A stretch of DNA of 64,000 nt from Escherichia coli (GTDB lineage: Bacteria; Pseudomonadota; Gammaproteobacteria; Enterobacterales; Enterobacteriaceae), in assembly GCF_003991155.1 (NCBI RefSeq), contig NZ_CP031293.1; one strand, given 5' to 3'. Under the pieces are notes generated by a model, which saw only the letters and a program-made list of their open reading frames with translations, was not told the origin of the DNA and did not search any database. Made by a program: the position numbers and the translations under genes. Positions 3,083 through 22,260 of this stretch are shown piece by piece. Position 1 is the first letter of the stretch; every line of letters begins with the position of its first letter.

Positions 3083-3403
3083 TTAAGCGGTTTGTGCCAG
3101 GTGAGCTTCAATTTTGCTCATAATGGCATCAGCGCGTTTTACCGCGTCGCTGATGTTGACGCGCACGATGGTCTTGCCAGCAAAACGCTCTTCAAACTTG
3201 ATGCCGATATCTTTGGTCAGAATCACCATATCGGCGCTCGCCACGTCTTCCGCAGTCAGTTCATTTTCCAGACCAATCGAGCCCTGGGTTTCTACTTTCA
3301 CTTCCCAGCCTTTCGCTTTCGCGGCACTTTCCAGCGCCTCTGCCGCCATATAGGTATGGGCAACACCAGATGGACACGCGGTTACTGCAATAATTTTCGT
3401 CAT
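3083..3403 (-). CDS. frwB: PTS fructose-like enzyme IIB component
   Basis: 106 aa ORF starting MTKIIAVTACPSGVAHTYMAAE with the IIB phospho-cysteine motif; position between frwC and pflD. Confidence 0.9.
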   Translation of the reverse strand: MTKIIAVTACPSGVAHTYMAAEALESAAKAKGWEVKVETQGSIGLENELTAEDVASADMVILTKDIGIKFEERFAGKTIVRVNISDAVKRADAIMSKIEAHLAQTA

Positions 3404-3417
3404 GGCTCGTTCCTCAA

Positions 3418-4497
3418 TTAATTAATTTCAAAATCCAAATCCAGGTCGTCTTCTTTTTCATCAGTCGAAGACCCATTTTTACGCGCCAGACTTTTCAGCA
3501 CGTTCACACAAACAGCCGTCACCACTGCTCCGACAGCCACTGCTGCGATATAACCCAGCTTGCCTTCAACCACCGGCAGCACAATCAGACCACCCCAGCC
3601 TGCATAGCACTGCGCACCGACCAGCGCCGCAGTTACTGCACCACAAACTGAACCGCTCATGATGGAAGGAATAACACGCAGCGGATCGGCAGCGGCGAAA
3701 GGAATCGCCCCTTCAGTAACCCCAACGCACCCCATCACCAGCGCCGCTTTACCGGTTTCGCGCTCTTCTGCGGAGAAATTTTTACGACCAATCAGCGTCG
3801 CCAGCCCCATCCCCAGCGGCGGAACACAAATCCCCACGGCAGCAATGGCCACCACGGTATAAACACCCTGAGCAACGCAAATCAGCATGAAGGCATAGGC
3901 CACTTTGTTAACCGGACCGCCCATATCGAACGCCAGCATCAGCCCCATGATCACCGCCAGCATAACAATGCTGCCCTGCTGCATCCCCTGTAGCCACTGA
4001 GTCAGGCTGTTGGTCAACGCCCCCACCGGCTCGCCCAGCCCCCACATCATGACGCCAGCGGTAATCAGTGTGCCGACGATTGGAATGATGAAGATTGGCA
4101 TCACCGAGCGCAGAACTTTATGCACCGGAATTTTCTTCAGGTAATGCACCACGATGCCGCCGATAATCCCGGCGATCAGTGCACCAAAGAAGCCCGCGCC
4201 AAAGCTGTTACCAACCCAGGCACCGATAGCGCATGGAGCCAGCGCAGAACGTTCTGCAATGGAATAACCGATGTAAGCGGCGAGGAAAGGCACCATCAGC
4301 GTCAAACCTGCAACGCCGATATCAAACAGTTTTTTCAGATTCGGATCGGCTACGGCATCCGGCACTGCGCCTTTGCCATACAACATGACGGAAACCGCCA
4401 GCAAAATACCGCCCGATACCACGAAGGGAATCATGTGTGAAACGCCCGTCATTAAATGCTGACGGGTATTTTTCAGGATCTGCACCAACTCATTCAT
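3418..4497 (-). CDS. frwC: PTS fructose-like enzyme IIC permease component
   Basis: 359 aa polytopic membrane protein ORF; synteny with frwB/pflD. Confidence 0.9.
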   Translation of the reverse strand: MNELVQILKNTRQHLMTGVSHMIPFVVSGGILLAVSVMLYGKGAVPDAVADPNLKKLFDIGVAGLTLMVPFLAAYIGYSIAERSALAPCAIGAWVGNSFGAGFFGALIAGIIGGIVVHYLKKIPVHKVLRSVMPIFIIPIVGTLITAGVMMWGLGEPVGALTNSLTQWLQGMQQGSIVMLAVIMGLMLAFDMGGPVNKVAYAFMLICVAQGVYTVVAIAAVGICVPPLGMGLATLIGRKNFSAEERETGKAALVMGCVGVTEGAIPFAAADPLRVIPSIMSGSVCGAVTAALVGAQCYAGWGGLIVLPVVEGKLGYIAAVAVGAVVTAVCVNVLKSLARKNGSSTDEKEDDLDLDFEIN

Positions 4498-7991: not shown

Positions 7992-9095
7992 ATGGACCGC
8001 ATTATTCAATCACCAGGTAAATACATCCAGGGCGCAGATGTAATTAATCGTCTGGGCGAGTACCTGAAGCCACTGGCGGAACGCTGGTTAGTGGTGGGTG
8101 ACAAATTTGTTTTAGGTTTTGCTCAATCCACTGTCGAGAAAAGCTTTAAAGATGCTGGACTGGTAGTAGAAATTGCGCCGTTTGGCGGTGAATGTTCGCA
8201 AAATGAGATCGACCGTCTGCGTGGCATCGCGGAGACTGCGCAGTGTGGCGCAATTCTCGGTATCGGTGGCGGAAAAACCCTCGATACTGCCAAAGCACTG
8301 GCACATTTCATGGGTGTTCCGGTAGCGATCGCACCGACTATCGCCTCTACCGACGCACCGTGCAGTGCGTTGTCTGTTATCTACACCGATGAGGGTGAGT
8401 TTGACCGCTATCTGATGTTGCCAAATAACCCGAATATGGTCATTGTCGACACCAAAATCGTCGCTGGCGCACCTGCACGTCTGTTAGCGGCGGGTATCGG
8501 CGATGCGCTGGCAACCTGGTTTGAAGCACGCGCCTGTTCCCGTAGCGGCGCGACCACCATGGCGGGCGGCAAGTGCACTCAGGCAGCGCTGGCACTGGCT
8601 GAACTGTGCTACAACACCCTGCTGGAAGAAGGCGAAAAAGCGATGCTTGCCGCCGAACAGCATGTAGTGACTCCGGCGCTGGAGCGCGTGATTGAAGCGA
8701 ACACCTATTTGAGCGGTGTTGGTTTTGAAAGCGGCGGGCTGGCGGCGGCACACGCGGTACATAACGGCCTGACCGCTATCCCGGACGCGCATCACTATTA
8801 TCATGGTGAAAAAGTGGCATTCGGTACGCTGACGCAGCTGGTTCTGGAAAACGCGCCGGTGGAGGAAATCGAAACCGTAGCTGCGCTTAGCCATGCGGTA
8901 GGTTTGCCAATAACTCTCGCTCAACTGGATATTAAAGAAGATGTCCCGGCGAAAATGCGAATTGTGGCAGAAGCGGCATGTGCAGAAGGTGAAACCATCC
9001 ACAACATGCCTGGCGGCGCAACGCCAGATCAGGTTTACGCCGCACTGCTGGTAGCTGACCAGTATGGACAACGTTTCCTGCAAGAGTGGGAATAA
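7992..9095 (+). CDS. gldA: Glycerol dehydrogenase
   Basis: 367 aa from [13 protein letters not shown]; iron-type alcohol dehydrogenase motifs ([12 protein letters not shown]); the ORF-track start at 7953 is an upstream in-frame extension overlapping fsaB. Confidence 0.93.
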
Positions 9096-9171: not shown

Positions 9172-9282
9172 TTTCCCCCTCGCCCTTTCAGGGAGAGGGG
9201 CGGGGTGAGGGTAAATATTCGCCCCGGAGCTGGCCTGTACCCCTCACCCTAACCCTCTCCCCAAAGGGGAGAGGGGACTGTT
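9172..9282. repeat. GC-rich imperfect palindromic intergenic repeat element (family not assigned)
   Basis: Segments gggagaggggcggggtgagggta and cccctcaccctaaccctctccccaaaggggagagggg are mutually complementary and internally palindromic; located in the gldA-yijF spacer. Confidence 0.5.
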
Positions 9283-9425
9283 CGAGCACTTTTTATACGT
9301 TATCACCCGTCTGAAACTCCCACGTTGTTCAGGAATTTTTTATCCGCTTCTGGACATTTTCTCCACAGAACAATCGTTAGCCCGGAAGGTCGAATCTGTG
9401 ACTCTTATTTTCACGGACGAAACAG

Positions 9426-10043
9426 ATGAAAGCTTCACTGGCGTTATTCAGTCTTCTGACGGTATTTACCAGTTACTCCTTAAAATCTCCCGCCGTTCCA
9501 CCAACCGTGGTACAAATCCAGGCCAACAGCAATCTTGCCATCGCAGACGGTGCCAGACAGCAAATCGGCAGCACGCTATTTTACGATCCGGCGTATGTGC
9601 AGCTTACCTATCCTGGCGGTGATGTCCCGCAAGAACGCGGCGTATGTTCCGATGTGGTGATCCGTGCATTGCGCAGCCAGAAGGTCGATTTGCAGAAACT
9701 GGTGCACGAAGATATGGCGAAGAATTTTGCTGCGTACCCGCAAAAATGGCAGTTAAAGCGCCCGGACAGCAACATCGATCACCGTCGGGTGCCTAATCTG
9801 GAAACCTGGTTTACCCGCCACGATAAAACACGCCCCACCAGCAAGAACCCCAGTGACTATCAATCGGGCGATATTGTCTCCTGGCGATTAGATAACGGGC
9901 TGGCACATATTGGGGTGGTGTCAGATGGCTTCGCCCGCGACGGTACGCCGCTGGTGATACATAACATTGGCGCAGGCGCGCAGGAAGAAGACGTGCTGTT
10001 TAGCTGGCGGATGGTGGGGCACTATCGGTATTTTGTTAAATAA
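9426..10043 (+). CDS. yijF: DUF1287-family secreted protein YijF
   Basis: 205 aa ORF with N-terminal signal peptide (MKASLALFSLLTVFTSYS); recognised as E. coli YijF; synteny. Confidence 0.88.
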   Translation: MKASLALFSLLTVFTSYSLKSPAVPPTVVQIQANSNLAIADGARQQIGSTLFYDPAYVQLTYPGGDVPQERGVCSDVVIRALRSQKVDLQKLVHEDMAKNFAAYPQKWQLKRPDSNIDHRRVPNLETWFTRHDKTRPTSKNPSDYQSGDIVSWRLDNGLAHIGVVSDGFARDGTPLVIHNIGAGAQEEDVLFSWRMVGHYRYFVK

Positions 10044-10069
10044 GCGATCGCCCCACATGAAGAAAAAAT

Positions 10070-10975
10070 TCAGATGTTTTTTACACTGACAGCTTCTTTT
10101 TTCTTACGGCTCACCAGCGCCAGTGCCAGCACAATCAGCACAATACCGCTACCTTCAACGGCCCCCGGATTCTCACCGAGCAGCCACCAGGAAAAGAGTA
10201 CGCCGCAAACGGGAACGGCCAGTGTGCTTAAGCTGGCAATACTGGCAGGCAAGTTTTTCAATACAAACAACCATAAGCTCCACGCCAGCGCTGTCGCCAG
10301 AATCGCACTGTAGGCCAGCGCCCAGAACACGGTGGGTTGCCAGTCAATTTCACGTTGCGGCACCAGTAAAGCGACCACGCTCATCACCAGCGCCGCATAC
10401 AGCATCTGCCAGGATGTTAGCGACAATAAATCCACGCGCGGATGGCGGGCATACAGACGTTTAGCAACAATCGCGCTCGCCCCCCAACTCACACCGGAGA
10501 GGATTGCCAGCATGGCGCTTTTCATCGAAGAGAAATCGAGTTGCCACGGCTGCAACACCAAAAATAAGCCGAAAGCGGCAATCAGTATCGCGAAATATTG
10601 CCCACGTCGCAGGCGTTCACCGAGAAACAACGCGGCGAAAATCACCACCCAGAACGGCATGGTATAGCTCAGGATTGCCACCTTCCCCGCTCCGCCGCTG
10701 ACCAGCGCCCACTGTGCCAGGCCGACCATCCCGCAGGTTTGTAACAGGGCAATGGCTAAGGTGTATTTAAACGGTGTCGGGCGCATTCCGCGACCACGTA
10801 ATAAAAGGACGATGAATAAAACGAGAGCGCCGAAAATGCAGCGTAAGGCGGTAAAGTCGAAGGCACCGATGTAGCTGGTGACTTGCTTCATGAAAATCCA
10901 GCTATAACTCCAGATAAGTGTGAGCACAACCAGGCCACTGATTGCCAGTGGGTTGCTCTTTCCTGCGGCAGACAT
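10070..10975 (-). CDS. yijE: EamA/DMT-family inner-membrane transporter (cystine exporter-like)
   Basis: About 301 aa polytopic membrane protein starting [17 protein letters not shown]; the ORF-track start at 11008 is an upstream extension. Confidence 0.88.
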
Positions 10976-13576: not shown

Positions 13577-14470
<894 letters not shown>

Positions 14471-14542: not shown

Positions 14543-14848
14543 ATGAAGGAAAAGCCGAGGGGCGTCAACCGAAAAATGACCAATGATGGTGAGGAAAAAT
14601 CAGGGAAGTTGAAAAAAACTCATCTTAATTAGAGGCGATAAAAGATTTCTCTATAGCGCAATCCACCTCGCACGTTTTGACTGATATTCTGACAACACAG
14701 CGACACCTGGGCTTATTCGAAAAACAACGTCCTGCCACCGGATGGTGATGCTAAGGCATCTGATTCGGCCTGCGCCCTCGCGTAGGCCGAATACTGGATC
14801 TGCAAAATCAACGGGTAACAAACAGATGAATCAACTCAATACGTACTT

Positions 14849-16408
14849 TTACTTGATATCTTTCACGCGCATACCGTTGATCTGTTCATCCGTGATGGTG
14901 TTACCCGCTTTGAAGTAATCAACCACGGCGTGATAAACGTAATAACCGCCCGTTGTGTTACGCGCTTTCCCTTCGGTAAAGGCGGTAAAACCATCTCCAC
15001 CATCAGCAAGGAAACTCTGGGTGGCAATAGAATAAACTGTCGCATCTTCAATGGGTTTGCCATTCAGAGTCAGTGTGATTACCCGCTGACCAACCGGTTT
15101 GCTGCTGTCGTACTTCATTTCCAGGCCTTTCGATACCTGTAAAACGCCATTACTTAAACTTGCGCCGTGTTCCATCAAACTGCGTAATTGTTTACCCGTG
15201 AGTTCCATCGTCACCAGTTCGTTGGGGAACGGGAAGGTACTGATGACGCCGCCCATCGTAATCGCCCCTGCGGGGATCTCATTGCGAATGCCGCCAGAGT
15301 TGGTTAACGCCAATTGGGTGTTTTTACCCGCCGCTACCAGTAAAGCATCAGCCGCCAGGTTCCCGAGGGAAGCCGATTCACCATAGGCACGTTTTAATTC
15401 AACCGGCGATTGCGCGACCGTTTGTTGCACCACTTCATCAAGCTTTTTATTCCAGCCGTCGATCACCTGTTTTGTTTGCGGATCGGGCTTCCACTCGTCG
15501 GCGTAAATGGTTTTAAGCTCGAAGTTTTTCACCGTAAAATCATGCGGCTTCTCTTTGTAGTCCAGTACCAGTTTACCGACATCAATCCCACCGCTGTCAG
15601 TGGAGAGGATGAGCGTATTGCCGACTTTAATCGGTTCCGGCGTACCCACATGTGCATGCCCGGTGATCAAAATATCCAGCCCTTTCACCTGACTTGCCGT
15701 CTGAATATCTTTATCCAGTGCGCGGCGCACATCTGTGCCCCCCATACTGGACTGGCGGGCCGGAACACCTTCGTGAATCAGCGCAACGGTCAAATCAACC
15801 TTGCCTTTGAGTTCATCGATATAACGTTGTAGCCATTTAATTTCATCACGCGCCTCAATACCCACTCGCGTTGCCGCAGATACCGTATCATTAAAGGCAA
15901 ATACACCGTGCAAACCAATCACGCCAATTTTCACGCCGTCTTTTTCAATGATGGTATAGGGCTTATCCCAGAATGATTTACTGCTGTTCTGATAAAAAAC
16001 ATTACCCTGCACAATCGGGAATTTTGCCTGACTCAACTGTAATAACGTATTGTCCCAGCCGTGATCAAATTCATGATTACCTATAGTGACCGCATCGAAT
16101 GGCATGGTATTCATAATATCGATAATCGCCTTGCCTTTAGTCAGGCTGCTGATATACGGCCCGGTAAAATAGTCACCCGCATCAAAAAACCAGGTCGCTT
16201 TGTTTTTAGCTTTTTCTTGTTTAACAAGCGTAGTGATATTTGCCCAGCCGCCAATATCTCGTTTACCGTCAGCAATCCACGGCACTTTATAAGGCTCTAC
16301 ATGTGCATGGAGGTCGTTGGTATAAATGATGGTGACATCTTTGGCGCAAGCCCAAAACGGCAGTGTTAATGCGATACCCGCAGCAAGCATTTTAATTTTC
16401 ATAAACAA
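14849..16408 (-). CDS. Secreted 5'-nucleotidase-family metallophosphoesterase, paralog 1
   Basis: 519 aa; N-terminal signal peptide; calcineurin-like phosphoesterase motifs [32 protein letters not shown]; C-terminal 5'-nucleotidase-type motifs (FPFPNEL, GGDGF). Confidence 0.85.
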
Positions 16409-16534
16409 TCCCTTCCAGTGAGATAAAGGATTGCTACATTACGTTCTGAAAGGCTTTTTTATGTGAGAATACTCACATCCAGAGGCGATAACTGTAGGAC
16501 AAAATCAACGACCTTATGAAATCGTTGGTGATAT

Positions 16535-17662
16535 ATGTCAAATCTGTTTGCGATTAATGTCTGTAAAACGTTCGGTTGTCGAAATTTGGGATTGGCCTCA
16601 TCGGAAGATTACAGTTGGCCAGACTATAAACTGGGTTTTCCGGCACTGCACTGCCAGGCATGCGGAAGTTACCCCCCTTTGTTTGATGAACAACAATTTC
16701 GTGACTGGTTGTCAGTTCACATGACTGCGTGTGCCATAGAAACAGGGCATTTTTGTCCATCATGCTATTGTAAAGAAAAGATTTTTTATGGCCACAACCC
16801 GCAGGGAACACAACGCGTTCAATGCCGTTCATGCAAAAAAGTCTGGACTCCGAAACAGCAGCCAGCAAGAGAAATTACGTATCCCCAGTCCATTGAAACC
16901 GTTCAACTGTTCATGCCCTTTCAAGGAGCCAGCGCAGTACAAAAGCTCTATGTTTTAGTCAGTCTTGACGCCACTCGTGGCAACATCCTTCATCTCTCCA
17001 CGAATTATACGCAACATCAGACAGGAGACAGTCTGCGGTACAGTTACAGAGGCAATACAGAACCAACTGAGCACCATAGCGATATTGTGCAGAGGGTAGA
17101 TATGCGTGAAGCGCAATTCTTGCGCCGGAGCCAGTTCGATGAAATTCAGTATGGCAGTGCTGTGCTCAAGCGCAATGGCAAGGGAGCCATACTACGCCCG
17201 GTTATCACGGCACACGGGCATTTCAGAATACTGAAAATCCGCTTTCCACATGTCAAAACGCATATCATTTCACACGAATGTTTTCTGAGAGGCGCAATTA
17301 TTACAGCCTGGGCAGATCAGTTCCGCCAACAACAAGGCGAACTTTGGTTCGTAGAAGAAGAAATCAGCGACCGTAACGCTGATATTCCCTGGCATTTTCA
17401 GGGAACGACATACCATGGTTGGTGGCAAAATCAGTGGCAACGCTGGGGGCAGGGGAATAACAGCAAGATGGTCTGCCTGCTCACAGGAGTCTCCTTAGAA
17501 AGGGGCGCAAATGTTTCTCTGGCAACCAGTCGTTGCTTTATCACATGGCTGACAGACCAACACGACTTTACCCAAAGCGCGTTATTATCCGCAGGTCGCG
17601 TAACGAAAATGCTGACCTCACTGGCGTTAAAATACAATGAATCGCTCACTCCATCTTGTTAG
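16535..17662 (+). CDS. Hypothetical Cys-rich protein (multiple CxxC pairs, possible zinc ribbon); function unknown
   Basis: 375 aa ORF; no signal peptide or TM segment; N-terminal CKTFGC, CQAC, CPSCYC, CRSC motifs; divergent from paralog 1 and upstream of paralogs 2 and 3. Confidence 0.6.
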   Translation: MSNLFAINVCKTFGCRNLGLASSEDYSWPDYKLGFPALHCQACGSYPPLFDEQQFRDWLSVHMTACAIETGHFCPSCYCKEKIFYGHNPQGTQRVQCRSCKKVWTPKQQPAREITYPQSIETVQLFMPFQGASAVQKLYVLVSLDATRGNILHLSTNYTQHQTGDSLRYSYRGNTEPTEHHSDIVQRVDMREAQFLRRSQFDEIQYGSAVLKRNGKGAILRPVITAHGHFRILKIRFPHVKTHIISHECFLRGAIITAWADQFRQQQGELWFVEEEISDRNADIPWHFQGTTYHGWWQNQWQRWGQGNNSKMVCLLTGVSLERGANVSLATSRCFITWLTDQHDFTQSALLSAGRVTKMLTSLALKYNESLTPSC

Positions 17663-17891
17663 TCAATACACTCGACAAACGACCATAAATTAATGGGATC
17701 ACTATTTCTCATTTAATTAAATATATGAATGTATGACTGAAAAATATAATCACAGTCAATGTTTAATTAATAACATTATTTGTTACTAAGATCACATAAT
17801 ACTTTCCTGACCTATGCTTACATAAAAATAAGACACGGTGTTCCTTTTATTTAAATAATTCAACCAATGTAACAACCCCTATCAAGGAGGG

Positions 17892-19445
17892 ATGATGAGA
17901 ACTGTATTTACGACTTTATCAGTCATATTCAGCGTGATGTTTTCTCACAGTATACTAGCTCAGGACGTTACTATTTATTATACGAATGATATTCACGCAC
18001 ATGTCAATCCGGCAAAAATTCCCGCTGTTGATAAGAACAGACTTGTAGGTGGTATGGCTAATATTGCAGGCATCGTTAATGAAGCGAAGAAAAAAAACAA
18101 AGATGTCTTTTTCTTTGATGCAGGCGACTATTTTACCGGTCCGTATATCAGTACCCTGACCAAAGGTGAAGCTATTATTGATATCATGAACACCATGCCC
18201 TTTGATGCGGTGTCCGTTGGTAATCACGAGTTCGATCACGGCGTGCCCAATATGGTATCTCAGTTATCAAAAGCAAAATTCCCCATTCTGCTGGGAAATA
18301 TTTACTACACCGATACAAATAAACCAGTTTGGGATCATCCGTGGACCATTATCGAAAAAGATGGTTTAAAGATTGGTGTGATTGGATTGCATGGTGCATT
18401 CGCTTTCTATGATACAGTCGCGGCAAAAGCACGTGAAGGCGTAGAAGCCAGAGACGAAATTAAATATTTAAATAAAGCACTTGCAGAATTAAAAGGTAAA
18501 GTCGACATTACCGTTTTGCTAATTCACGAAGGTGTTCCGGCGCGTCAATCAAGCTTTGGTAGTAAAGATGTGGAGCGGCTACTACAGGCAGATATTGAGA
18601 CAGCTAAAAAAGTGAATGGTGTTGATGTCTTAATTACCGGTCACGCACATGTCGGAACACCGCAACCAATAAAAGTTAATAACACATTAATTGTATCTAC
18701 CGATGCATACGGCACCGACATCGGAAAACTTGTGCTTGATTACAATCCGAAAACAAAGAAAATTGATAGTTATAATGGTGAGTTAATCACCATCTTTGCA
18801 GATCAATTTAAACCTGACACCATCGTTCAAAATACTATCGATAAATGGAGCGTAAAACTTAACAAAATAACACAGGAAGTTGTCGGCCATTCTCCCGTAG
18901 TTTTAACACGTGAGTATGGCAGTTCTTCTTCTACCGGTAATCTTATTCTGGATGCAATGATGGAAAAAACACCTGATGCCATTGCCGGATTTCAAAATAG
19001 CGGTGGGATGCGAGCTGATTTTCCTAAAGGTGATATCACACTGGGAGATGTTATTAGCACATTCCCCTTTAATAATGACCTCATCGAGATGGATTTGACG
19101 GGCCGCGATCTCAAATCGTTGATGACGCATGCAACCAATCTAACTAACGGTGTGTTACAGGTTTCAAAAAGCGTTGCGGTTGTCTATGACAGCAAAAAAC
19201 CACTCAACCAACGGTTAATCTCTTTCACCATTAACGGCAAACCCGTGGAAGATAATCAAACATATCGTATTGCCACGCACTCCTTTTGTGCCAGTGGTGG
19301 TGACGGTTTTGAAGCATTTTTGAATGGAAAAAATGTGAAGACGATACCGGGAACAACCTCGGCGGAATCTATCATCGATTATTTCAAAAATCATAAACCT
19401 GTCACCCCAGACTTAACTAAACGAGTCATGGACGTCGCCAAATAA
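17892..19445 (+). CDS. Secreted 5'-nucleotidase-family metallophosphoesterase, paralog 2
   Basis: 517 aa; signal peptide ending SILA-QD; same phosphoesterase motif set ([32 protein letters not shown]); SD aggagg upstream; the true start may be the second ATG at 17895. Confidence 0.85.
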   Translation: MMRTVFTTLSVIFSVMFSHSILAQDVTIYYTNDIHAHVNPAKIPAVDKNRLVGGMANIAGIVNEAKKKNKDVFFFDAGDYFTGPYISTLTKGEAIIDIMNTMPFDAVSVGNHEFDHGVPNMVSQLSKAKFPILLGNIYYTDTNKPVWDHPWTIIEKDGLKIGVIGLHGAFAFYDTVAAKAREGVEARDEIKYLNKALAELKGKVDITVLLIHEGVPARQSSFGSKDVERLLQADIETAKKVNGVDVLITGHAHVGTPQPIKVNNTLIVSTDAYGTDIGKLVLDYNPKTKKIDSYNGELITIFADQFKPDTIVQNTIDKWSVKLNKITQEVVGHSPVVLTREYGSSSSTGNLILDAMMEKTPDAIAGFQNSGGMRADFPKGDITLGDVISTFPFNNDLIEMDLTGRDLKSLMTHATNLTNGVLQVSKSVAVVYDSKKPLNQRLISFTINGKPVEDNQTYRIATHSFCASGGDGFEAFLNGKNVKTIPGTTSAESIIDYFKNHKPVTPDLTKRVMDVAK

Positions 19446-19485
19446 AATATCATTTATCAGTCTATATATTTAACAAGGAATGCGA

Positions 19486-21105
19486 ATGAAAACAGTGCAG
19501 CGTACTTTACTTGCCGCAACATTGCTGACTATTTTTTCGGTCTCAGTCATGGCGCAGGATGTCACGATTATTTATACAAATGATCTTCACGCTCATGTGG
19601 ATTCTTATAAAGTGCCGTATATCGCAGACGGAAAACGCGACATTGGCGGCTTTGCCAATATATCTACTTTAGTAAAACAAGAGAAAGCGAAAAATAAAGC
19701 CACCTTTTATTTTGATGCTGGAGACTATTTCACCGGCCCTTATATCAGCAGTCTGACAAAGGGCGAAGCAATAATTGACATTATGAATACCATGCCTTTT
19801 GACGCAGTATCAATCGGTAATCATGAGTTTGACCATGGCTGGGATAATGCCCTGCGACAATTAAGCAAAGCGAATTTTCCTGTTTTATTGGGCAATGTTT
19901 ATCATAAAGAGAGTGAGAACCCCTTCTGGAACAAGCCCTACACCATCCTGGAAAAAGATGGCATCAAGATTGGTATTATTGGGCTACACGGCGTATTTGC
20001 ATTTAATGATACGGTCTCGGAGCTCTCTCTCCAGGGACTCGATAATGACAATAATAACCGCTTTGATAAATCTTCCGAGACCCTTAAGAATCAGGGGATT
20101 GAAGCACGTGATGAAGTGAAGTATTTGCAGCATTATATCGACGAGTTACGTGATAAGGTTGACCTCACTGTGGCGCTGGTTCATGAAGGCGTTCCGGCGC
20201 GTCAGTCCAGCATTGGCAATACAGATGTTAGACGCGCTCTTGATAAAGATATTCAAACCGCTAGCAAGGTGAAAGGATTGGATATTCTGATTACCGGGCA
20301 TGCCCACGTCGGAACGCCAGAACCAATCAAAGTCGGCAACACCTTAATCCTTTCGACTGATAGTGGCGGTATCGATATTGGTAAATTAGTCCTTGATGTC
20401 AACCCTACAGCTCGTACCCATAAAATGAAGAGCTTTGAGCTGAAAACAGTTTATGCCGATGAATGGATACCCGATCCAACGACACAAAAAGTTATCAATG
20501 GCTGGAATAAAAAACTGGCGGATATTGTACGCCAACCAGTAGGTGAATCATCGATTGCATTAACTCGCGCCTATGGTGAGTCATCGCAACTAGGCAACCT
20601 GTTTACCGATGCAATGCTTGTCGCTGCTCCGACTGCACAGATTGCATTGATAAACTCCGGCAGCTTACGTGCGGATATAAATGCAGGCACGATTACCTTT
20701 GGCGACATTACCAGTACATTCCCCTTCAAGAATGAACTTACTGAAATGGATCTCAGCGGTAAGGATCTGCGTAACCTACTGGAACACGGGGCATCGCTTA
20801 CCAATGGCATCCTGCAAATGTCAAAAGGCGCAGAAATGCGCTATACCCCGCAGAAACCAGTAGGTCAGCGCATAGTATCTTTTAAAATTAATGGTGAAGA
20901 GATCGTTGATACGAATATTTACCATGTTGCAACAACGACTTTCCTTGCACTGGGGGGCGATGGTTTTCTGGCATTCAAAGAAGGGAAAAATGTTCAGGTC
21001 CGCGCCGGAAATAACATGTCCGATGTCGTGATCGATTATTTGAAGAAAGGCCACAAGATTACGCCTGCACAGGTAAATGAAATGCGGGTGGACGTTAGCA
21101 AATAA
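19486..21105 (+). CDS. Secreted 5'-nucleotidase-family metallophosphoesterase, paralog 3 (closest to paralog 1, with an extra low-complexity insert)
   Basis: About 539 aa from MKTVQRTLLAATLL (the ORF track starts two codons earlier at 19480); signal peptide VMA-QD; motifs as in paralog 1; insert SELSLQGLDNDNNNRFDKSSETLKNQ absent from paralogs 1 and 2. Confidence 0.85.
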   Translation: MKTVQRTLLAATLLTIFSVSVMAQDVTIIYTNDLHAHVDSYKVPYIADGKRDIGGFANISTLVKQEKAKNKATFYFDAGDYFTGPYISSLTKGEAIIDIMNTMPFDAVSIGNHEFDHGWDNALRQLSKANFPVLLGNVYHKESENPFWNKPYTILEKDGIKIGIIGLHGVFAFNDTVSELSLQGLDNDNNNRFDKSSETLKNQGIEARDEVKYLQHYIDELRDKVDLTVALVHEGVPARQSSIGNTDVRRALDKDIQTASKVKGLDILITGHAHVGTPEPIKVGNTLILSTDSGGIDIGKLVLDVNPTARTHKMKSFELKTVYADEWIPDPTTQKVINGWNKKLADIVRQPVGESSIALTRAYGESSQLGNLFTDAMLVAAPTAQIALINSGSLRADINAGTITFGDITSTFPFKNELTEMDLSGKDLRNLLEHGASLTNGILQMSKGAEMRYTPQKPVGQRIVSFKINGEEIVDTNIYHVATTTFLALGGDGFLAFKEGKNVQVRAGNNMSDVVIDYLKKGHKITPAQVNEMRVDVSK

Positions 21106-21117
21106 TAAAAAAATTAT

Positions 21118-21150
21118 AATGCCATTCATTCACTGAATGGCATTATTTTT
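21118..21150 (+). terminator. Intrinsic terminator after nucleotidase paralog 3
   Basis: Perfect palindrome aatgccattcattcactgaatggcatt followed by attttt. Confidence 0.65.
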
Positions 21151-21183
21151 CTCTAAATCAACAATAGATAATGAGATATATTT

Positions 21184-22044
21184 ATGTGTATAAAAAAGCA
21201 CGGGATAGCGTTATCGATTCTATTAATACCTTGCATTGGAAACGCTCAGGAAATTAAAAGTGAGGAAGGCTGGTTACATCAAAGCTTGAATGTCATTGGT
21301 CGCACAGACTCTCGCTTTGGCCCAAGGCTGACTAACGACCTCTACCCTGAATATACTGTAGCAGGAAGAAAAGACTGGTTTGATTTTTATGGTTATGTTG
21401 ATCTACCAAAATTCTTTGGCGTCGGCAGTCACTATGATGTTGGGATCTGGGATGAGGGCTCACCCCTATTTACGGAAATAGAACCTCGGTTTTCCATTGA
21501 CAAATTGACCGGATTAAATCTTGCGTTCGGCCCTTTTAAAGAATGGTTCATTGCAAACAACTATGTCTATGATATGGGTGACAACCAGTCATCCCGGCAA
21601 AGTACATGGTATATGGGGCTTGGTACAGATATCGACACGGGTCTACCAATTAAGCTTTCTGCCAATATATACGCCAAGTATCAGTGGCAAAACTATGGTG
21701 CCGCTAATGAAAATGAATGGGACGGATATCGATTCAAAATAAAATATAGCATTCCTCTTACCCATTTATTCGGAGGGCGATTGGTATACAATAGTTTTAC
21801 TAACTTTGATTTTGGCTCCGATCTTGCGGACAAATCACACAATAATAAACGAACCAGTAATGCTATTGCTTCAAGCCATATCCTTTCCCTGCTATATGAA
21901 CACTGGAAATTTGCATTTACACTACGTTATTTTCACAACGGTGGACAATGGAATGCTGGGGAGAAAGTTAACTTCGGAGATGGTCCATTTGAATTAAAAA
22001 ACACAGGATGGGGAACCTATACTACTATTGGTTATCAATTTTAA
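21184..22044 (+). CDS. Tsx-family outer-membrane nucleoside-specific channel protein (paralog of tsx)
   Basis: 286 aa; signal peptide; shares recalled Tsx blocks [79 protein letters not shown]; ends in a C-terminal aromatic residue (GYQF) typical of beta-barrels. Confidence 0.85.
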
Positions 22045-22221
22045 ATCAGGTGATGTTTTAGATATTTTTACTTAATGCCATTTTGTAATTGTCATAAATA
22101 ACTTCACCATTCACACTGTGAATTCATCGCTCAACACAAAAGCCCCCTTATTACCGGGGCACTGACCAAAGGCAAAATGACAATCAATCACCACCTCCGC
22201 AGGAGGTGGTTTAGAGGTGAC

Positions 22222-22250
22222 AACAAAAGCTGGCAACTGCCAGCTTTTGT
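22222..22250 (-). terminator. metL terminator hairpin (aaaagctggc-aact-gccagctttt)
   Basis: Perfect 10 bp inverted repeat flanked by A/T runs, about 12 bp downstream of the metL stop. Confidence 0.7.
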
Positions 22251-22260
22251 TCAATAATCA

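Follow-up and report, generated by a model that had tools for sequence, protein, structure and literature searches.

A domesticated IS1-type transposase derivative beside a secreted nucleotidase gene of Escherichia coli, a candidate local regulator of nucleotide scavenging

Introduction

InsA binds the ends of the insertion sequence (IS) IS1 and represses the IS1 promoter. Other transposase-derived proteins have become regulators of their hosts, as with FHY3/FAR1 (from Mutator), SETMAR and the PGBD proteins of eukaryotes and the TnpB-derived TldR of bacteria, in which the DNA-recognition module has been kept and catalysis has been lost. The domestication of DDE (Asp-Asp-Glu) transposases into host regulators is well known in eukaryotes and barely documented in bacteria. 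Here, we analyze an open reading frame (ORF) for a Cys-rich protein at 16535..17662, on the plus strand, of a 64,000-nucleotide stretch of Escherichia coli DNA (contig NZ_CP031293.1 of assembly GCF_003991155.1), the whole of which is called the window below. The ORF is divergent from the gene of a secreted metallophosphatase/5'-nucleotidase, nucleotidase 1 (14849-16408, minus strand). That its product is a domesticated derivative of an IS1-type transposase is well supported, and we consider it highly probable that this derivative is functionally tied to nucleotide scavenging. It resembles the transposase-derived factors named above; unlike the TldR- and FHY3-type cases, it comes from the IS1 superfamily, belongs to another host and has no guide RNA, and its regulatory role is inferred from synteny only.

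The protein is organized like IS1 InsA and InsAB' (PF03811; PF12759, HTH_Tnp_IS1; PF03400, DDE_Tnp_IS1), with a CxxC...CxxC ribbon followed, in most members of its family, by a helix-turn-helix (HTH) and then by an RNase H-fold domain. In contrast to InsAB', its N-terminus bears an additional zinc module and the HTH has been lost, it is encoded in a single frame without a frameshift, and its first two catalytic Asp residues (D1 and D2) appear to have been replaced by T/S and R/K. Unlike IS1 itself, the gene has no terminal inverted repeats (IRs), is single-copy and syntenic, and is under purifying selection. The surroundings recall the CytR/DeoR systems of enterobacteria and Vibrio (deo, tsx, udp and cdd), as a Tsx channel gene, deo genes and genes of nucleotide or nucleoside hydrolases occur nearby and a cAMP-CRP site stands in the control region; however, the protein is related in neither sequence nor fold to CytR and DeoR, which have LacI-type and DeoR-type HTH domains, and the single CRP site here is central in a divergent spacer. 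The layout, with the putative regulator gene divergent from its presumed target, about 130 bp away, across a conserved shared spacer, is that of LysR-type regulators, but the family is unrelated, and neither a winged HTH nor a LysR substrate domain was matched.

Results

The ORF Is an Intact, Selected Gene of a Widespread Family

The ORF starts with ATG and runs uninterrupted for 375 aa. Its product is identical to WP_000067197.1 of E. coli IAI39, which carries the RefSeq label “hypothetical protein”, and the ORF with its flanking spacers is 100% identical in IAI39, CE10 and other E. coli strains. An earlier sequence-only reading had described a Cys-rich protein of 375 aa on the plus strand, rich in His, Trp and Gln, with four Cys pairs in its N-terminal part and neither a signal peptide nor a transmembrane (TM) helix, and all of this was borne out. 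The Cys residues are at positions 10, 15, 40, 43, 66, 74, 77, 79, 97, 100, 249, 314, 334 and 375, and the four pairs are C10-x4-C15, C40-x2-C43, C74-x2-C77 and C97-x2-C100, each paired Cys being kept in 43–51 of the 51 family members aligned, far above chance expectation. Gln, His and Trp are over-represented (7.7, 4.3 and 2.9% of residues, respectively). No TM helix or signal peptide was detected, the maximum 19-residue Kyte-Doolittle mean being 1.1. The AlphaFold2 (AF2) model is a confident fold forming one compact globule, with a predicted local distance difference test (pLDDT) of 93.4 and a predicted TM-score (pTM) of 0.93.

The pairwise ratios of nonsynonymous to synonymous substitution rates (dN/dS) of the ORF against 14 orthologues were 0.07–0.24 among pairs with unsaturated dS, and the ORF is therefore a real, selected gene. 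The corresponding values for nucleotidase 1 were 0.02–0.07, which means that the ORF is under purifying selection more relaxed than that on its neighbor. The faster evolution of the ORF (58–80% identity vs 87–99% for nucleotidase 1) and the occurrence of frameshifted or truncated copies in some lineages are what a decaying remnant without function would leave behind. This explanation is effectively refuted by the selection and conservation data, and we give it hardly any credence: beside the low dN/dS, intact ORFs of 371–391 aa are present in dozens of species, the invariant residues are maintained in relatives at 20–30% identity, and the fold is predicted with confidence. The term “decayed”, which the sequence-only reading had offered as one option, does not describe this gene.

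The family comprised 252 homologues at E ≤ 1e-3 in a database clustered at 90% identity. Nearly all are named “cytoplasmic protein” or “hypothetical protein”, some relatives are named “IS1 family transposase” by annotation pipelines, and a precomputed Pfam domain was present on none of the 252. The 50%-level database gave 123 representatives, including full-length relatives of 400–650 aa with 22–33% identity. By genus, the named relatives belong to Escherichia, Citrobacter, Klebsiella, Enterobacter, Kluyvera, Salmonella, Atlantibacter, Serratia, Proteus, Vibrio, Photobacterium, Enterovibrio and Thaumasiovibrio. Within E. coli, the ORF is found in 34% of genomes, with 1841 genomes carrying it in one place each. 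Five residues are invariant in the 51-sequence alignment (C97, C100, R198, H229 and W301), and a further set is kept in at least 90% of the sequences (N8, C10, C15, C40, C43, C77, G86, R94, G149, N157, Y169, P222, H247, E248, W297 and N368). A full-text literature search of incomplete coverage found no description of this family.

An InsA-Type Zinc Ribbon at the N-Terminus

The Cys pairs are arranged in two zinc modules. Zinc module 1 (aa 8–48, 16556..16678, plus strand) has the pattern N-x-C10-K-x3-C15 ... C40-x2-C43-G-x-Y-P-P, with N8 and all four Cys among the residues kept in at least 90% of the family, and it matched no Pfam model in the ORF protein or in the family members scanned. Zinc module 2 (aa 74–105, 16754..16849, plus strand; C74-x2-C77 ... 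C97-x2-C100) is, by profile comparison, homologous to the DNA-binding zinc ribbon of IS1 InsA. The match of the ORF protein alone is weak (PF03811 at E 0.043 and NF033558 at 20.4 bits, both at aa 74–105, and NF050000, the IS1/IS1595 zinc-binding domain, also weakly), whereas across the family it is significant. PF03811 (Zn_ribbon_InsA) was found in 21 of the 51 family members (E ≤ 0.1; lowest E 5.7e-6); of ten distant members scanned, three (P0142, P0158 and P0140) exceeded the NF050000 cut-off; and the NCBIfam IS1 profile reached position 130–137 of its 199, into the catalytic domain, in P0140 and P0240. An hhalign comparison of the family profile with IS1 InsAB' gave a probability of 96.3% and an E of 1.6e-9 over InsAB' residues 4–87, which cover the zinc ribbon and the HTH, and a PHROG search returned an InsA-like match alone. 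The sequence-only reading had proposed a zinc-ribbon transposase derivative as one of its two hypotheses, and the profile data agree with it, the searches having led to no unrelated enzyme family.

In most family members, the ribbon is followed by an HTH-like insert of ~45–80 aa. The ORF protein is gapped here, over InsAB' residues ~47–87 in the hhalign comparison and over alignment columns ~165–250. The stretch aa 74–112 is strongly basic, as counted from the sequence.

No LacI/CytR, DeoR, LysR or similar regulator domain was matched by Pfam or NCBIfam in the ORF protein or the family members. The PDB hits of a sequence-profile search were rejected as compositional C2H2 zinc-finger matches only. 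PADLOC gave no match for the ORF protein and two weak CARF3--CARF matches (E 0.0022 and 0.033) for the distant member P0142; the neighbors of the ORF locus are metabolic genes, not a defense-island context.

An RNase H-Like Domain with an Apparently Lost Catalytic Triad

The C-terminal two thirds of the protein, which the sequence-only reading had been unable to place in any family, adopt in the AF2 model the RNase H/DDE-transposase fold (aa 119–371, 16889..17647, plus strand). The order of the modeled elements, namely beta1 (119–129), beta2 (136–145), beta3 (151–156), a helix (184–197), beta4 (218–220), a helix (222–236), beta5 (242–246) and a helix (249–264), matches the beta1-beta2-beta3-alpha-beta4-alpha-beta5-alpha order of the integrase core. 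Fold comparison matched, over alignments of ~130–186 residues, the integrase of prototype foamy virus (PFV; score 10.0), the integrase chain of a TnsABCD transpososome (9bw1_M; 9.7), the ISCth4 transposase (9.5), TnsB of type V-K (8aa5; 9.1), and the Mos1 (8.7), Tn5 (8.1) and Mu (8.1) transposases. Foldseek against the PDB gave no significant hit and no close solved relative, returning weak RNase H-like matches only. The domain is larger than that of IS1, with an inserted beta-sheet bearing a GWWxNxW motif.

The search for IS1 InsAB' homologues returned almost only near-identical IS1 copies, and the profile alignments are reliable for the InsA part only; the catalytic positions were located by secondary-structure order and spacing. 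The first Asp of IS1 (MDEQW) is 14 residues ahead of the conserved beta2 Trp (RWLFYAYD), and in family members without indels a conserved Thr is exactly 14 residues ahead of the conserved beta2 LW. This position, 122, is T in 39 and S in 9 of the 51 sequences. Position 221, directly after beta4, is R in 26 and K in 10, and position 248, directly after beta5, is E in 46 and D in 5. No column of the 51 sequences contained a conserved acidic residue in beta1. On this mapping, the catalytic triad appears to be lost, with D1 replaced by T/S122, D2 by R/K221 (R221 in the ORF protein) and only E248 kept.

A different reading of the same domain should be weighed here, in which the functional link to nucleotide scavenging holds but the protein does not work as a DNA-binding transcription factor. 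Its RNase H-like domain would have been repurposed into a cytoplasmic enzyme or sensor that acts on nucleic acids, nucleotides or nucleosides through a new His-His-Glu(-Arg) site, or into an adaptor contacting CRP or RNA polymerase. Its attractions are that R198, H229, H247 and E/D248 are invariant or near-invariant, that the HTH has been lost from the enterobacterial clade, and that the zinc modules pack against the core in a compact, rigid model (pTM 0.93). However, no known enzyme family was matched by Pfam, NCBIfam, PDB profile search or Foldseek, and the InsA-type ribbon is a DNA-binding module in the only characterized relatives. The genetic context, described below, bears on it as well, and overall we regard an enzyme, sensor or adaptor as unlikely.

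The ORF Does Not Belong to an Insertion Sequence

The ORF was compared with an IS1 element for six features. It has one, the zinc ribbon; the HTH, the DDE triad (on the above mapping), the IRs with target-site duplication, the copy number with a cut-off score, and the frameshift organization are all lacking. A repeat search found no IR pair flanking 16535-17662, and neither a second copy of the ORF nor an IS1 was found in the 64-kb window. The NCBIfam IS1 scores of 20–37 bits, with 20.4 bits against NF033558 for the ORF protein, were far below the cut-off of 100 bits. The insA/insB organization with a programmed -1 frameshift is absent, the ORF being one 375-aa frame. Since five of the six features fail, the label “IS1 family transposase” is wrong, and filing or annotating the ORF under it is unwarranted. 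A resemblance of the spacer to the IS1 IR, judged by eye, was weak and was rejected.

These results also bear on the idea that the protein is still an active recombinase or transposase of an unusual type, by which the nucleotidase module is moved. The module occupies two unrelated chromosomal settings and is carried by no more than about a third of E. coli genomes, it lies in a low-GC island, and some pipelines name its relatives as IS1 transposases. Beyond the missing IRs, the low profile scores and the lack of a conserved Asp at the first catalytic position, however, there is one copy per genome, the same chromosomal position is occupied in many genera, and no duplication was evident at the island ends against K-12, where the junctions were not read base by base. 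We consider an active recombinase very improbable. The sequence-only reading had suggested that the gene marks the cluster as a former mobile element; of such an origin, only low GC and variable presence were seen. We read the protein as a domesticated transposase that has kept the nucleic-acid-binding zinc modules and has lost mobility and, apparently, catalysis.

A Conserved Pair with a Divergent Nucleotidase Gene

The gene neighborhood is the strongest evidence for a functional link. A scan of one genome per species gave 36 loci, all of Enterobacterales (Enterobacteriaceae and one Rahnella), from Escherichia, Citrobacter, Pseudocitrobacter, Pluralibacter, Silvania, Enterobacter, Kosakonia, Klebsiella, Phytobacter, Superficieibacter, Kluyvera, Salmonella arizonae and Rahnella. 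In 35 of them, a nucleotidase-1-type gene is directly upstream of the ORF and divergent from it, at ~130 bp, the one exception being at a contig edge. Two unrelated chromosomal contexts are represented, with 23 loci at the metF-metL site and 12 elsewhere, some of the latter having the order nuc3-tsx-nuc2-nuc1 followed by the divergent ORF. As nucleotidases 2 and 3 and the Tsx-like gene vary in presence and place, the constant unit is nucleotidase 1, the spacer and the ORF, and these other genes are accessory. For the idea of a dedicated regulator of the cluster, the other hypothesis of the sequence-only reading, this very strong linkage is supporting evidence at the level of synteny. The conserved partner is nucleotidase 1 with the shared spacer; nucleotidases 2 and 3 and the Tsx-like gene are lacking from a two-gene form of the locus.

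Relatives with only 22–33% identity to the ORF protein lie in comparable company. P0140 of Vibrio taketomensis (29% identity) is divergent from a 5'-nucleotidase gene 128 bp away, and P0161 of Vibrio mimicus and P0163 are 16 and 110 bp downstream of one, respectively. P0142 of Salmonella Give is divergent from an operon of a porin, a class B acid phosphatase and a class II cyclic-nucleotide phosphodiesterase (PDEase_II). P0149, from a metagenome, is divergent from TAL-add-deoC-deoA-deoB-deoD and adjoins genes of TatD and a Bmp nucleoside ABC transporter, and P0201 of Thaumasiovibrio is 42 bp downstream of a PNP_UDP_1 (deoD-type) nucleoside phosphorylase gene. P0178 adjoins genes of endonuclease I and an LTD-domain protein, P0158 of Atlantibacter follows Tsx, sulfatase and anaerobic sulfatase-maturating enzyme (anSME) genes, and P0165 adjoins a radical-SAM gene; P0224, from a metagenome, is on a short, uninformative contig. 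In 10 of the 11 contexts looked at, extracytoplasmic hydrolase, channel or nucleoside-catabolic genes are beside the family member or in its cluster, P0165 having the radical-SAM gene only. Since a sulfatase/anSME-linked subfamily is present, the family is not confined to nucleotide metabolism.

Two further observations concern these relatives. In Salmonella enterica serovar Give and others, the family member shares a small island with the operon genes just named and a PAP2 phosphatase gene, namely those of the porin, the acid phosphatase (class B) and the cyclic-nucleotide phosphodiesterase (class II), and this island is bounded by IS3-family (rve) transposase genes. Arylsulfotransferase-type genes are just downstream of family members in Enterobacter hormaechei (9282-10808) and Atlantibacter (8284-8628).

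For the enzyme or sensor discussed above, it speaks that several relatives are co-directional with an enzyme gene and 12–110 bp downstream of it, in an operon-like manner. On the other hand, regulator genes are classically arranged in this way, divergent across a conserved spacer, and the linked genes differ chemically (nucleotidase, sulfatase, nuclease and phosphorylase), which suits a regulator better than any one enzyme.

The Shared Control Region

The divergent control region shared with nucleotidase 1 (16409..16534, 126 bp) has a mean column identity of 87% in five sequences from three genera; it is far better conserved than the ORF, and its blocks are kept in 25 loci of ~12 genera. Box 1, TTACGTTCTGAAAG (16439..16452), is near-invariant in the 25 loci, has no other exact copy in the window, and is probably the core promoter or an operator of nucleotidase 1. 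Central in the spacer is a perfect CRP consensus, TGTGA-N6-TCACA (16462..16477), the only zero-mismatch site in the 64 kb, of which the TCACA half is invariant in the 25 loci. Box 3, AAATCGTTGGT (16519..16529, plus strand), is invariant, ends 5 nt upstream of the ORF start codon, and is a candidate auto-operator and/or part of the ribosome-binding site context. A related AAAATC(N)GTTGG and a CRP-like site are kept even in loci whose protein is only 38–40% identical.

The position of box 3, within the probable 5' untranslated region, might also suggest a post-transcriptional regulator that binds the 5' leader of its own mRNA, the nucleotidase mRNA or both, the more so as RNA is a frequent ligand of zinc ribbons and RNase H-like folds. 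An RNA hairpin formed by the palindrome CAACGA-N10-TCGTTG, just ahead of the start codon, was considered and rejected, being no more stable than shuffled controls (z -0.13) and showing no compensatory changes, and Rfam gave no match. Such a post-transcriptional role appears improbable to us.

Upstream of nucleotidase 2, the spacer at 17663-17891 (229 bp, GC ~0.35) contains a CRP-like site with one mismatch (17781..17796) and a promoter-like site at 17830-17859.

Forms of the Locus in E. coli

In the window, the ORF is part of an island (14618..22261) between metF (13577-14467, minus strand) and metL (22261-24693, minus strand). As the sequence-only reading had it, the ORF is divergent from nucleotidase 1 and upstream of nucleotidase 2 (17892-19445), nucleotidase 3 (19480-21105) and the Tsx-like channel gene (21184-22044), all three on the plus strand. 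The GC content of the island is 0.35–0.49, as against 0.52–0.59 in the flanks. The island stands in place of ~199 bp of the K-12 metL-metF spacer; because K-12 has unrelated sequence there (K-12 locus 3269-3616), seemingly including a repetitive extragenic palindromic (REP)-type palindrome, the two states are a replacement and not a simple insertion.

Alleles of the five-gene island at 91–100% identity to the window, with at least 80% of the query covered, occur in 658 genomes, including LF82. The commoner form of the locus, as in sequence type 131 (ST131), has two genes, nucleotidase 1 and the ORF only. Here the 3' end of the ORF overlaps the convergent 3' end of metL by ~37 nt (ST131 locus 8221-8257), and the two-gene copy of ETEC4077 is frameshifted. 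Nucleotidases 2 and 3 and the Tsx-like gene, missing from this form, are on the nucleotidase-1 side in Enterobacter-type loci. Some genomes (E. coli SCPM-O-B-8794, Escherichia sp. MOD1-EC7003 and Citrobacter sp. wls619) have two paralogous nucleotidase-1/ORF modules, one at metF-metL and another elsewhere with nuc3-tsx-nuc2.

The nucleotidase 1 genes of the window and ST131 share 98% identity (dS 0.27) and the adjoining ORFs only 72% (dS 1.6), and the window allele of the ORF is equally distant from the ST131 and Pseudocitrobacter alleles. This sharp step in divergence suggests an old recombination breakpoint in or near the spacer and a replacement of the ORF allele between E. coli lineages. 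Two annotation details were also noted. The Tsx-like gene is an intact ORF of 286 aa, the same length as LF82 WP_000275563.1, although RefSeq calls the IAI39 copy a pseudogene (“missing C-terminus”). The mechanical ORF of nucleotidase 1 begins at TTG (MFMKIK..., 16402-16408), while the RefSeq start is the ATG two codons on (MKIK...).

Discussion

We lean, by a modest degree, towards the protein being a domesticated IS1-family transposase that no longer transposes and acts as a locus-specific regulator of nucleotide and nucleoside scavenging genes. Taken on its own, a role as a DNA-binding transcription regulator has about an even chance. The data fit an ORF that has settled next to a secreted nucleotidase gene as its fixed divergent partner, the two sharing a CRP-dependent control region. 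In the mechanism we propose, the protein would bind the spacer through its basic zinc modules, with box 3 (AAATCGTTGGT) and box 1 (TTACGTTCTGAAAG) as candidate sites, and, together with cAMP-CRP, would modulate the transcription of nucleotidase 1 and of its own gene. The dead RNase H-like domain (R198/H229/H247/E248/W297/W301) would serve oligomerization, small-molecule sensing or both. The proposal that the protein binds and tunes the spacer draws on an analogy with InsA, which, as said above, binds the IS1 ends and represses its own promoter.

Several points weigh against this proposal. The InsA-type HTH has been lost from the enterobacterial nucleotidase-linked clade, including the ORF protein, and the binding of IS1 ends requires the HTH plus the zinc finger. 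Boxes 1 and 3 have no further copy upstream of nucleotidase 2, and in the rest of the window they occur no more than by chance. As frameshifted or truncated copies exist in some lineages, the gene is dispensable. The D-D-E mapping was made from the order and spacing of secondary-structure elements, and the profile alignment to IS1 is unreliable past the HTH (hhalign and hmmsearch). The residues of the conserved His/His/Glu/Arg set might form a catalytic or metal site of a new kind instead of a dead one.

A wider version of the proposal, which we put forward tentatively and hold somewhat less likely than the role at this locus, would extend it to a hitherto undescribed family of catalytically dead transposases, derived from IS1, that Enterobacterales and Vibrionales would have taken on as local transcription factors, with one paralogue per scavenging step or for sulfatases, and with the pocket R198/H229/H247/E248/W297/W301 as a metal or small-molecule sensor. 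If this is true, the steps served by individual paralogues would be those of a nuclease, a nucleotidase, a phosphatase or phosphodiesterase, Tsx or a porin, and the deo genes. The literature search, incomplete in coverage, yielded no example of a bacterial IS1-derived regulator, and the family would then be among the first clear bacterial cases of a DDE transposase domesticated into a regulator family.

The gene, also present in Citrobacter, Klebsiella, Enterobacter, Salmonella and Vibrio, is everywhere labeled only “hypothetical”, “cytoplasmic protein” or, wrongly, “IS1 family transposase”, and the present result removes an annotation error by which IS counts are inflated. Its carriers, about a third of complete E. 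coli genomes, include the extraintestinal pathogenic E. coli (ExPEC) lineages ST131, LF82 and IAI39. If secreted nucleotidases and nucleoside channels are under its control, the ORF would offer a tractable model for the repurposing of a transposase active site and would join CytR, DeoR and CRP as a further regulator of the use of extracellular nucleotides and DNA as nutrients, a use that bears on colonization of the gut and urinary tract.

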